In this document: piece by piece, positions 3,001-9,000 of the stretch
How the letters are laid out: each line of letters starts with the position of its first letter
How positions within the stretch are numbered: the first letter of the stretch is position 1
Source: Escherichia coli
GTDB lineage: Bacteria; Pseudomonadota; Gammaproteobacteria; Enterobacterales; Enterobacteriaceae
Length of the DNA stretch: 64,000 bases
Assembly (NCBI RefSeq): GCF_045037415.1
Contig: NZ_CP173438.1
Reading direction: 5' to 3' (one strand)
Program-made: the position numbers

Positions 3001-6000
3001 AGTGCAGTCACCGGACGTTTCCGTAACCCGTACATCAAGCATCAACTGCTGTCTATCGCGCTCAACGGTATGACCAAGTTCCGCACACGCATCCTGCCGC
3101 AGCTGCTGGCAGGGCAGAAGGCAAACGGCACACTTCCGGCGCGCCTTACTTTCGCATTAGCGGCATTGATTGCGTTCTATCGCGGTGTGCGTAATGGAGA
3201 AACATATCCGGTACAGGACGATGCACACTGGCTGGAACGTTATCAGCAACTCTGGAGCCAGTATCGTGACCGTGTTATCGGGACCCAGGAACTGGTAGCG
3301 ATTGTGTTGGCAGAAAAAGACCACTGGGAGCAGGACCTGACGCAAGTGCCTGGTCTGGTCGAGCAGGTTGCTAATGACCTGGATGCGATTCTCGAAAAAG
3401 GGATGCGCGAAGCTGTACGCCCGTTGTGCTAATACTCTGAACCCGGTTTCGACCGGGTTTCTTATTCCGCTATATTAGTTACAACATTCTATATGCCTTT
3501 ATCATTAACAGGTGCCACATGCAGCACCTGTTAATGTTGTAATCTTGTAGGTAATTTGTAAGTAGTATCTTGAGAATGTGATCATAATCACGTTTAATAG
3601 GGCGACTTTTCCACGCCTGAAGATAACCATGATTGTTCGTCCACAACAACACTGGCTGCGCCGTATTTTTGTCTGGCACGGTTCAGTATTATCCAAGATA
3701 TCCTCGCGCTTACTACTCAATTTTCTCTTTTCGATCGCTGTTATTTTCATGCTGCCCTGGTACACGCATTTGGGCATTAAATTCACCCTCGCACCGTTCA
3801 GCATTCTCGGTGTCGCCATCGCCATTTTTCTTGGTTTTCGTAATAATGCCGGTTACGCCCGTTACGTTGAAGCGCGAAAACTTTGGGGGCAGTTGATGAT
3901 TGCCTCGCGGTCGTTACTGCGCGAGGTAAAAACGACATTACCGGATTCGGCAAGTGTAAGGGAGTTTGCCCGGCTGCAAATCGTCTTCGCCCACTGTTTA
4001 CGCATGACATTACGCAAACAGCCACAGGCAGAAGTGCTGGCTCATTATCTCAAGACTGAAGATCTTCAGCGTGTACTGGCTTCTAACTCTCCAGCTAACC
4101 GCATCTTGTTAATAATGGGGGAGTGGTTGGCGGTTCAGCGACGCAATGGACAACTTTCAGATATCCTGTTTATTAGCCTCAACGATCGGCTTAATGATAT
4201 TTCAGCGGTCCTGGCAGGATGCGAGCGCATTGCCTATACGCCAATTCCCTTTGCCTACACCCTGATTTTGCATCGCACCGTGTATCTGTTTTGTATCATG
4301 TTGCCGTTTGCGCTGGTCGTGGACCTGCATTACATGACGCCTTTTATCTCTGTGCTGATTTCCTACACTTTTATTTCGCTGGATTGTCTGGCGGAAGAAC
4401 TGGAAGATCCCTTCGGTACTGAAAACAATGATTTACCGCTGGATGCCATCTGCAACGCTATTGAAATTGACCTGTTACAGATGAATGATGAAGCAGAAAT
4501 TCCAGCGAAAATTCTTCCCGATCGCCATTACCAGCTGACGTGATAATTACTCCGTACGGCGGGCAACAATAAACAGACGCGGAAATGCCAGCAATATCTG
4601 TCCGTTCTCCTGGAGGGGATATTGCTCTTCCAGCATCTGATGGTAGCGCGTAAGAAAATGCTGCTGTTCGCTCTCGGTCAGATCCTGTAACCACGGACGT
4701 AATCCAGTGGCGGTCACCCAATCGATAATCGCCTGGTGCGACGGCATCTGGTGATAGTAAGTGGTTCGCCAGATATCGACCTCACATCCGGCTTCACTCA
4801 GAATATCGTAGTAAGCATGAACGCCAGCCAGCGGCTCACGCCCGCGATCCGGATAATTTTGTTCCCAGGCGACTTCGCGCATGAGCACATGGGTTGGCTC
4901 TAGCCAGTTATCTGGCATCTGTATTGCCAACACACCATGCGAATTAAGTAACGAAACCAAATGAGGAAACAATTCGTAGTGGTCGGGCAGCCATTGCAGT
5001 GAGGCATTAGCAAAAATCAGATCGAGTGCCTGTTCCGGTTGCCAGTTGCGGATATCTGCTTCCACAAACAGGCAGTCTGGCAAAGCACTGCGCGCTTCAG
5101 CAATCATCGCCGGAGATGAGTCGATGCCCGTTATCCTGGCAGCAGGCCAACGTTGGTGTAGAAGGGCGGTGATGTTACCTGGGCCACAGCCAAGATCGGC
5201 AATGTATTCGATATTCTCCAGCGGCACCCTGGCAAGCAGCTCCACCGCCGGACGCGATCGTTCAGCGGCAAAGTGCAGATATAAAGAGGGGTTCCAGTCA
5301 GACATTTTTTTACTCCCGTCAGCGCGTTACCCCAATTGTAGATAAAACTGATAAATTCGCCTCACGGCATCACCCCATTGAACAGACGTTTTTTACGCGG
5401 CCCGGTCATTAAGATTACAGATTCCGGTAGTCAAAGAAGCCACCGCATTAGGATGTGCTTTTTTAAATCCTCCTTTTTATCCGCGATCGCGGATATCGCA
5501 GCGTTTATCCCGTAGAGCGGATAAGATGTGTTTCCAGATTGACTTTATCCTCACTAAAGGATAAAACTGATAATATCCCCTTAAGCGGATAAATTTGCTG
5601 TGGACGTATGACATGATGAGCTTTCAGAAGATCTATAGCCCAACGCAATTGGCGAATGCAATGAAACTGGTTCGCCAGCAAAACGGCTGGACGCAGAGCG
5701 AGTTGGCGAAAAAAATCGGCATTAAGCAGGCGACAATTTCCAATTTCGAAAACAATCCTGACAATACCTCGCTCACGACATTTTTTAAGATTTTACAGTC
5801 GCTTGAACTCTCAATGACGCTATGCGACGCGAAAAATGCCTCGCCAGAAGCAACAGAACAGCAAGATCTGGAGTGGTAATGCCTAAACTAGTCACTTGGA
5901 TGAACAACCAGCGGGTAGGCGAGTTAACGAAGTTAGCCAACGGCGCGCACACCTTTAAGTATGCAGCTGAGTGGTTAGCCAGCCGTTATGCCAGACCGTT

Positions 6001-9000
6001 GTCACTTTCGCTGCCATTGCAGAGGGGGAATATCACCTCTGATGCCGTATTTAACTTCTTCGATAACCTGTTACCCGATAGCCCGATTGTACGTGACCGG
6101 ATCGTTAAACGTTATCATGCTAAATCCAGACAACCGTTTGATTTATTGTCAGAAATAGGGCGAGACAGCGTTGGTGCCGTGACGTTAATCCCCGAAGATG
6201 AAACCGTAACGTGTCCGATAATGGCATGGGAAAAGCTTACTGAAGCCAGACTTGAAGAAGTATTAACGGCTTATAAAGCAGATATCCCGTTAGGCATGAT
6301 TAGAGAAGAAAATGACTTTCGCATCTCGGTTGCTGGCGCACAGGAGAAGACTGCGCTGCTCAGAATAGGCAATGACTGGTGCATTCCGAAGGGAATAACG
6401 CCAACGACGCACATTATCAAATTGCCGATTGGCGAAATCAGACAGCCCAATGCGACGCTCGATCTTAGCCAAAGCGTTGATAATGAGTATTACTGTTTGC
6501 TGCTGGCGAAAGAACTCGGGTTGAATGTTCCGGACGCAGAAATCATTAAAGCGGGAAGGGTGCGCGCGTTAGCGGTCGAACGTTTTGACAGGCGTTGGAA
6601 TACTGAGCGAACGGTTTTACTTCGCTTGCCACAGGAGGATATGTGCCAGACATTCGGTTTACCTTCATCGGTGAAATATGAATCAGATGGAGGCCCCGGT
6701 ATCGCGCAAATTATGGCTTTTTTGATGGGGTCCAGCGAGGCGCTGAAAGATCGCTATGATTTTATGAAGTTTCAGGTCTTCCAGTGGTTGATTGGCGCAA
6801 CGGATGGCCATGCAAAAAACTTCTCCGTATTTATTCAGGCTGGCGGCAGTTATCGGCTCACACCATTTTACGACATCATTTCGGCATTTCCGGTCCTTGG
6901 CGGTACGGGAATACACATCAGCGATCTCAAACTGGCAATGGGGCTTAACGCATCCAAAGGCAAAAAAACGGCAATCGATAAAATTTATCCGCGACATTTT
7001 CTGGCGACAGCAAAGGTGCTGAAATTCCCGGAAGTGCAGATGCATGAAATCCTGAGTGACTTTGCCAGAATGATTCCGGCAGCACTGGATAACGTGAAGA
7101 CTTCATTACCGACAGATTTTCCGGAGAACGTGGTGACGGCAGTTGAAACCAATGTGTTGAGGTTGCACGATCGGTTAAGCCGAGAATACGGTATTAAGTA
7201 AGATATGGGGTTTTGGTCGTTGTTAATGAGCAGAAATCATGAACCGCCAACGACTGGATTCGCCCTTGGTTTATATTGGTGCGCATAATGTATATTATGT
7301 TAAATTGATTATGAAGGTCCTTTACTTCACCATTCACATCCACACACAGATAAATCAATACGTTGTGATTTCTGACTTCCCTCCCGTTTCGGTAGAAAAA
7401 TCAACCTCTGTTCAGTGATGGCACACCATAGACCATGAGCTGGATAATTGCGTTGTTTACAGCAGCCAGCGCTTTGATGGCACTATATCCCTCACGCTTC
7501 TGAATATAATTCATAGCGCCGTGTAATTATCTTTAATCTCAAGTTAGCTAATCTCAGCATATCGTGTTGATATGCAATGTGAAATACAGAGAACAGTGAC
7601 TACAGCTGATGGAGGAAGCTATTTCCGATATTCGTCAACTTCCAAATATATCGTTTAAAACAGGTATCAGATATGAAAGCACTACTAATTACTGCATTAT
7701 TCATGGGATTCAGTTAGTTTCACCAGGCAAACATTAACCATAGCTAATGTTTATAGCCATATAAACTATTAGTACCTCTTGACCTTTCCTGACACTTCCC
7801 TTGTTCGCAATAATATTCTGTTTAGTCGCTGTTTATAAATAACATGCATAATGAAATCGTCATGTTATTTAGCGACATAAAATGTTTTTACAAATACTCT
7901 CTACAACAAGTGCAGCAATAAAATTGTTGTGAATAGGTGTCCTTGTAATTTAAAGATATTATCATTCTTCGTGAAATGTAATAACCATGGAAACTATATT
8001 CTCAGGGCAACATCCAATCAAGAATGATTCTTGTTTTATAAGCAATAACAGAATAACTTAATTGTTAACTCTCTTTATTCAGCTACTTAAATATAAATTT
8101 TGGAGAATTATGAAACTCAAACATGTCGGTATTATTGTCGTTTCTGTGTTGGCGATGTCGTCTGCTGCGGTAAGCGCAGCCGAGGGTGATGAATCAGTAA
8201 CGACCACTGTTAATGGCGGTGTAATTCATTTTAAAGGTGAAGTGGTAAATGCCGCTTGTGCGATTGATTCAGAATCAATGAACCAAACGGTTGAGCTGGG
8301 TCAGGTTCGTTCTTCTCGCCTGGCTAAAGCGGGTGACCTCAGCTCCGCCGTTGGCTTCAATATCAAGCTGAATGATTGTGATACCAATGTTTCCAGTAAT
8401 GCAGCTGTTGCATTCCTGGGTACTACTGTCACCAGTAATGACGATACATTAGCGCTGCAGAGTTCAGCGGCAGGCTCTGCCCAAAATGTCGGTATCCAAA
8501 TTTTGGACCGTACAGGGGAGGTATTAGTACTTGATGGTGCTACTTTTAGCGCTAAAACTGACTTGATTGATGGCACGAATATACTGCCGTTCCAGGCTCG
8601 TTATATTGCTCTCGGGCAGTCAGTAGCTGGTACTGCAAATGCTGATGCGACCTTCAAAGTTCAATATCTATAATTCACTCTTAAGGTGACTATGCGTCAT
8701 CTGAAATTGAAACAGGGTGTGTGTGGCATGGCTACGCACACCCGAGAAATTCACCAATGTTCATCTCATTATTAATGAAAAATGGTTTGTATTTTGGAGC
8801 GGTATGAAAAATCACATAATATCTAAACGATCAATAAACAACAGTAGTTAAACTTGCTGTTATTTAAAATATTTACTTGGTAGCAAGGTTTTCCTATCAA
8901 AAGAGAACCAACATTTATTACAAACGCATTAAGTCTGGAAACCCGGCGACTCGCCAATGTATTAGCAATATTTACCGATTGTCTGATGTAACGGTTTCCC

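Follow-up and report, generated by a model that had tools for sequence, protein, structure and literature searches.

Does the region at positions 5478-7201 of this 64-kb Escherichia coli window, by which we mean the whole stretch of DNA analysed, hold a complete and regulated hipBA toxin-antitoxin operon, and is there anything unusual in such an operon having been kept at this place? An earlier note had described the region as an intact module preceded by four canonical HipB operators and had called its retention notable in view of neighbouring deletions. The interval is almost certainly the chromosomal hipBA type II toxin-antitoxin operon, a direct ortholog of the K-12 operon at the same position, in the wild-type allele carried by sequence type 131 (ST131). 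Its limits had been placed exactly: the interval opens with the first base of operator O1 and closes with the final base of the hipA stop. The locus is already known, is routinely annotated in RefSeq (hipB as WP_001296076.1 and hipA as WP_001125411.1 on identical DNA) and is ordinary.

HipA is a single protein of 440 aa, the length of K-12 HipA, with an N-terminal subdomain and a kinase domain: Pfam assigns Couple_hipA to residues 6-103 (3.9e-27) and HipA_C to residues 149-401 (3.6e-52). Residues 1-440 align to 1-440 of the solved K-12 chains (2WIU, 3DNT, 3TPD) with 973 bits, and this end-to-end alignment bears out the description of HipA as full length. Compared to MG1655, 431 of the 440 residues are identical (98.0%), the nine substitutions being P30A, H112C, N227R, A242T, R277Q, R382K, S424T, G431D and S439I. 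R382K retains the positive charge of a residue that presumably contacts the DNA backbone; a literature text search on HipA Lys379/Arg382 returned nothing relevant. HipB carries the Pfam helix-turn-helix (HTH) domain HTH_3 (3.3e-15), clears the NCBIfam HipB equivalog NF007271 (183.8 bits, cut-off 79) and aligns to the HipB chains in PDB with 180 bits. It shares 85 of 88 residues with K-12 HipB (96.6%), differing by T53S, S80A and N85D. The ratios of nonsynonymous to synonymous substitution rates (dN/dS, Nei-Gojobori) relative to K-12 are 0.09 for hipA and 0.12 for hipB; these values of about 0.1 indicate ordinary purifying selection.

Alignment of HipA with its K-12 counterpart revealed no change at S150, which lies in the Gly-rich P loop, at K181, at the catalytic D309 or at the Mg2+ ligands N314 and D332, and thus no inactivating substitution at these kinase residues. 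HipA function is abolished by S150A, D309Q and D332Q (PMC3376134), and also by mutation of K181 or N314 (PMC11717353). The positions affected by the high-persistence changes G22S+D291A, P86L and D88N, as these are named in a preprint (bioRxiv 10.1101/2024.11.05.622023, citing Schumacher et al. 2015), were compared as well, and at G22, P86, D88 and D291 the window has the wild-type residue of K-12 throughout. In practical terms, hipA of ST131 is wild type and not hipA7-like: hipA7 and the clinical high-persistence alleles are the same gene, but none of their substitutions occurs in the window. The HipB C-terminal tail, AKNASPEATEQQDLEW as opposed to AKNASPESTEQQNLEW in K-12, keeps W88 and is changed in two positions (S80A, N85D). 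Lon degrades HipB via this disordered 16-residue tail ending in the conserved Trp88 (PMC3376134).

The two genes overlap in the single base announced for the TAATG junction, base 5879 serving at once as the final A of the hipB TAA and as the first letter of the hipA ATG. Locus, gene order, overlap and lengths are the same as in K-12 MG1655 hipBA (b1508/b1507; 2WIU, 3DNT/3DNV, 3HZI, 3TPB-3TPV, 4YG7, 5K98), as are the operator sequences, the kinase motifs and HipB W88, and synteny holds on both sides. Judged by its sequence, the operon has the features of the E. coli K-12 HipA subclade in domains, motifs, HTH antitoxin, operators, orthology and tail.

An exact search for TATCC-N8-GGATA over the whole 64-kb window returned five sites against a chance expectation of 0.07, a total that did not arise in any of 100 shuffles. 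Four of the five stand within a 114-bp stretch ahead of hipB. When one mismatch was permitted, a single extra site appeared that is unrelated to hipBA. By alignment, all four operator sequences are those of K-12, and their number agrees with the literature, which describes four HipB operators of consensus TATCCN8GGATA (PMC3376134, PMC3920265); the four canonical operators claimed before hipB are therefore exact matches in agreement with the published count. The gaps between them are 10, 22 and 10 bp, compared to 10, 21 and 10 bp in K-12 (PMC4150777), because one extra T (window 5545) stands just 5' of O3. Besides this T and the hexamer GATAAT, which is TATAAT in K-12, the control region differs from K-12 by one further base change past O4.

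To place these differences, nine hipBA alleles, K-12 included, were aligned. GATAAT is found in all eight non-K-12 alleles and the 22-bp gap between O2 and O3 in six of the nine. The view that the extra T and GATAAT are specialities of ST131 was accordingly rejected: most of the aligned alleles have GATAAT, the 22-bp gap is frequent among them, and both variants are widespread polymorphisms in E. coli. Within the operators, every TATCC and GGATA half-site is the same in all nine alleles, except that a single strain has a changed half-site in O1. The N8 cores differ between alleles, a pattern to be expected if the half-sites are what HipB recognises. Since the 21-bp gap and the perfect TATAAT of K-12 are not species-wide, promoter data obtained in K-12 may hold only approximately for other strains, for example clinical ones. 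The promoter region of strain 536 (phylogroup B2) is 99.4% identical to the window over 154 bp, and the B2 strains CFT073, 536 and LF82/NRG857c show minor allelic differences only; HipA of the window is WP_001125411.1, whereas the HipA proteins of CFT073 and LF82 are WP_001125431 and WP_001125432 (bioRxiv 10.1101/2024.11.05.622023).

Over window positions 1-25000, numerous E. coli genomes match with 100% identity, among them those of the O25b:H4-ST131 strains EC958, JJ1887 and MNCRE44, and the region 5306-7201 is present at an identity of at least 99% in 1035 records. The allele is of the ST131 type, occurs in about a thousand other complete genomes, and most likely belongs to phylogroup B2.

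The presumed mode of action follows studies of the K-12 proteins (PMC3376134, PMC6581861, PMC3920265) and is carried over to this copy on near-identity. HipB dimers would bind cooperatively to the four operators, which cover the promoter, and so repress the operon, with HipA acting as co-repressor within HipA2HipB2-DNA complexes. Translation of hipA would be coupled to that of hipB through the TAATG overlap. HipB would keep HipA inactive until Lon removes HipB via its C-terminal tail. Free HipA would then phosphorylate GltX, the glutamyl-tRNA synthetase, at Ser239, so that translation stalls, and stalled translation would lead through RelA-dependent (p)ppGpp to growth arrest, that is, persistence. 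HipA would finally turn itself off by autophosphorylation of Ser150; both GltX as a HipA target and the autophosphorylated Ser150 are documented (PMC6581861).

No observation contradicts this reading, although four caveats go with it. A sigma-70 consensus promoter scan of the operator region reported no site under its criteria, which bears on the -35 and -10 hexamers; because of this result GATAAT is given here as a candidate -10 element, and TTGACT at 5539-5544 was rejected as its -35 partner, being 24 bp away and thus too far. With an identity of 97-98% to the K-12 proteins, this copy would be expected to show kinase activity, toxicity, repression and Lon turnover, and likewise the toxicity of HipA, its neutralisation by HipB and the phosphorylation of GltX would follow from 98% identity. 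Effects on function may come from the substitutions that, among the nine alleles, are seen only in the window allele, namely P30A, H112C, R277Q and G431D in HipA and T53S and S80A in HipB; the remaining five of the nine HipA differences also occur in other lineages. Moreover, even wild-type hipBA plays only a modest biological part (PMC3464220).

No RNA family was found by an Rfam scan of 4500-8200. A terminator scan gave a single weak minus-strand site within hipB, which is regarded as a chance occurrence. The coordinates of the features are collected in the table.

Table. Features of the hipBA locus and of its upstream junction (window positions).
Feature	Position	Strand	Remarks
lsrG 3'-end remnant (about 63-64 nt)	5362..5424	-	Adjoins tam upstream region; left scar of the lsr/yneO loss
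lsrK internal fragment, 38 nt	5421..5458	+	Between two deletion joints; K-12 locus 12866-12829, 94.7%
HipB operator O1, TATCCGCGATCGCGGATA	5478..5495		Perfect 18-bp palindrome; exact pattern match; same as K-12 O1
HipB operator O2, TATCCCGTAGAGCGGATA	5506..5523		10 bp past O1; exact match; same as K-12 O2
HipB operator O3, TATCCTCACTAAAGGATA	5546..5563		22 bp past O2 (K-12: 21 bp); exact match
Candidate -10 hexamer GATAAT	5569..5574	+	K-12: TATAAT; overlaps first base of O4; read from alignment
HipB operator O4, TATCCCCTTAAGCGGATA	5574..5591		10 bp past O3; exact match; same as K-12 O4
hipB, Xre/Cro-type HTH antitoxin and autorepressor	5613..5879	+	88 codons + TAA; open reading frame list, Pfam, NCBIfam, PDB
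Putative GGAG Shine-Dalgarno for hipA	5870..5873	+	Within hipB end, 5 nt before ATG; read from sequence, presumed function
hipA, Ser/Thr kinase toxin	5879..7201	+	440 codons + TAA; Pfam, PDB alignment, K-12 comparison

The second part of the question concerns retention. Relative to K-12, the stretch from tam to hipB is without yneO, lsrK, lsrR and lsrACDBFG, so that the upstream neighbour of hipBA is yneO with the lsr locus in K-12, whereas in the window it is tam, reached via a scar of lsrG and lsrK sequence. In blastn, window positions 5205-5424, which comprise tam, the tam upstream region and the lsrG end, match positions 21447-21227 of the K-12 locus with 95% identity, the end of lsrG corresponding to position 21290, and homology to the DNA upstream of K-12 hipB begins at 5458, 20 bp before O1. 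In lsr-positive genomes the three pieces of the scar match annotated lsrG, annotated lsrK (up to 100%) and the hipB upstream region separately. This compound scar shows that the lsr locus and yneO were once present and were then deleted, either through two joints or in a single complex event. In 966 of the 5426 complete genomes the tam-scar-hipB junction is found in full, in line with the published result that over 95% of the genomes of phylogroup B2 have kept under 100 bp of lsr sequence (PMC12263705). The loss of lsr and yneO is the known lineage-wide B2 deletion, a single inherited event that left the hipBA regulatory region untouched; for practical purposes, it spared the whole hipBA control region.

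Following the lsr loss, tam on the minus strand and hipB on the plus strand now lie next to each other in divergent orientation, 307 bp apart (window 4547-5612). K-12 tam lies directly downstream of lsrG, whereas tam in the window has no lsr genes upstream and must use a promoter of its own.

The deletions that had been placed around the operon are thus real upstream, where the lsr locus and yneO are gone and have left scars. Downstream the description does not hold, since there it is K-12 that is deleted and the window that is the intact version. Past hipA, the window carries a complete fimbrial operon (8062-12438) with major subunit, chaperone, an 883-aa usher, ydeS, ydeR and ydeQ. K-12 is without the DNA corresponding to window 7932-11211, a 3.3-kb deletion, and retains only the truncated usher ydeT and the yneL pseudogene.

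A near-full hipBA is found in 4561 of the 5426 complete E. coli genomes (84%), about 16% being without such a copy. hipBA is hence close to core in E. coli, and keeping it is the norm. With one flank only deleted and the same junction shared by 966 genomes, the judgement that retention is notable was not upheld: hipBA is near-core, the scar goes back to one inherited event and the module is dispensable as a unit.

Retention could nevertheless be a meaningful signature of addiction, if the lsr/yneO deletion had halted at the edge of hipBA because loss of hipB or of the operators without hipA would kill the cell. The deletion joint does lie just 20 bp upstream of O1. Degraded loci elsewhere also lend this some colour. 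In O157:H7 strain 2159, O2-O4, hipB and the 5' end of hipA are gone and O1 with a 5'-truncated hipA is left; in MRY15-131, both hipB and hipA are gone and only O1-O2 remain. Both strains thus lost hipB together with hipA sequence and not alone, which fits toxin-antitoxin logic, although two deletion cases are anecdotal. However, a single deletion endpoint is not statistical evidence, and the scar is one ancestral event inherited by 966 genomes and not a repeated, independent retention. Furthermore, hipBA as a whole can be dispensed with: a near-full copy is missing from about 16% of complete genomes, and a CFT073 hipBA deletion was viable and showed no defect in mouse urinary-tract infection (PMC3464220). 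Finally, hipA has been inactivated with hipB kept in elppa9, where HipA is truncated at 231 aa and a SIR2-family gene follows immediately downstream, and in E302, an ST131-like strain with otherwise identical DNA, in which ISEc52 is inserted in hipA. Taken together, this makes an addiction signature unlikely.

Independently of that issue, O157:H7, MRY15-131, elppa9 and E302 represent four independent routes of hipBA loss. The degraded loci of O157:H7 and MRY15-131 occupy the same locus next to the same flanking autotransporter gene, whereas the window copy is complete.

We consider it quite unlikely that the allele is functionally shifted, in the sense that its substitutions (P30A, H112C, R277Q and G431D in HipA, S80A and N85D in the HipB tail) or the 22-bp gap and GATAAT alter repression, HipB turnover or HipA release, so that the persister frequency of ST131 differs from that of K-12. 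The substitutions are present, two of those in HipB fall into the 16-residue tail that controls degradation by Lon (PMC3376134), and P30A, in N-subdomain 1, belongs to the same N-terminal subdomain of about 100 residues as G22, P86 and D88. However, the promoter differences are not lineage-specific (GATAAT in 8/8 non-K-12 alleles, the 22-bp gap in 6/9), and N85D is common to all sampled non-K-12 alleles and to the crystallised HipB of PDB 5K98. Nor is any high-persistence position changed, and dN/dS of about 0.1 corresponds to ordinary purifying selection. The narrower proposal, that the allele-unique changes P30A, H112C, R277Q and G431D in HipA together with T53S and S80A (the latter in the Lon degron) in HipB would measurably change HipB turnover or HipA release, appears very improbable. 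If these changes did act, the natural hipBA allele of ST131 and its relatives would give these strains a persister frequency unlike that of K-12.

That the palindromes are due to chance or serve another regulator, with the two open reading frames not forming a regulated pair, is scarcely credible: it can draw only on the general caution that a pattern match is not function, whereas four exact sites crowd into 114 bp against an expectation of 0.07 for the entire 64 kb, their half-sites stay the same from one E. coli lineage to another as the spacers drift, and they are identical to the sites that HipB footprints in K-12 (PMC3376134, PMC3920265). The locus is therefore best read as the wild-type hipBA operon of ST131. 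hipBA is among the best-studied toxin-antitoxin modules, and this copy, the usual allele in a lineage of major clinical importance, matters little in itself.

A fifth exact HipB-type palindrome, TATCCAGGTCGCAGGATA, is located at 11220-11237, within the fimbrial usher gene (9787-12438) and 5.6 kb from hipBA. It is kept in K-12, where it lies 8 bp from the joint of the 3.3-kb fimbrial deletion. As a predicted HipB-type site it is probably a chance occurrence.

A stretch of about 400 bp downstream of hipA, window positions 7306-7712, gave no megablast match to the K-12 segment holding the yneL pseudogene, and nothing is annotated there in the identical RefSeq genome. In this interval the lineages differ by replacement or strong divergence. 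At the other end of the region, the diguanylate cyclase gene upstream of uxaB is annotated with 1419 nt in the ST131-type genome (L001 2031-3449; window ~336-1754). Its K-12 counterpart dgcF (L002 24908-25855) is annotated at only 948 nt, and the K-12 copy appears shortened.

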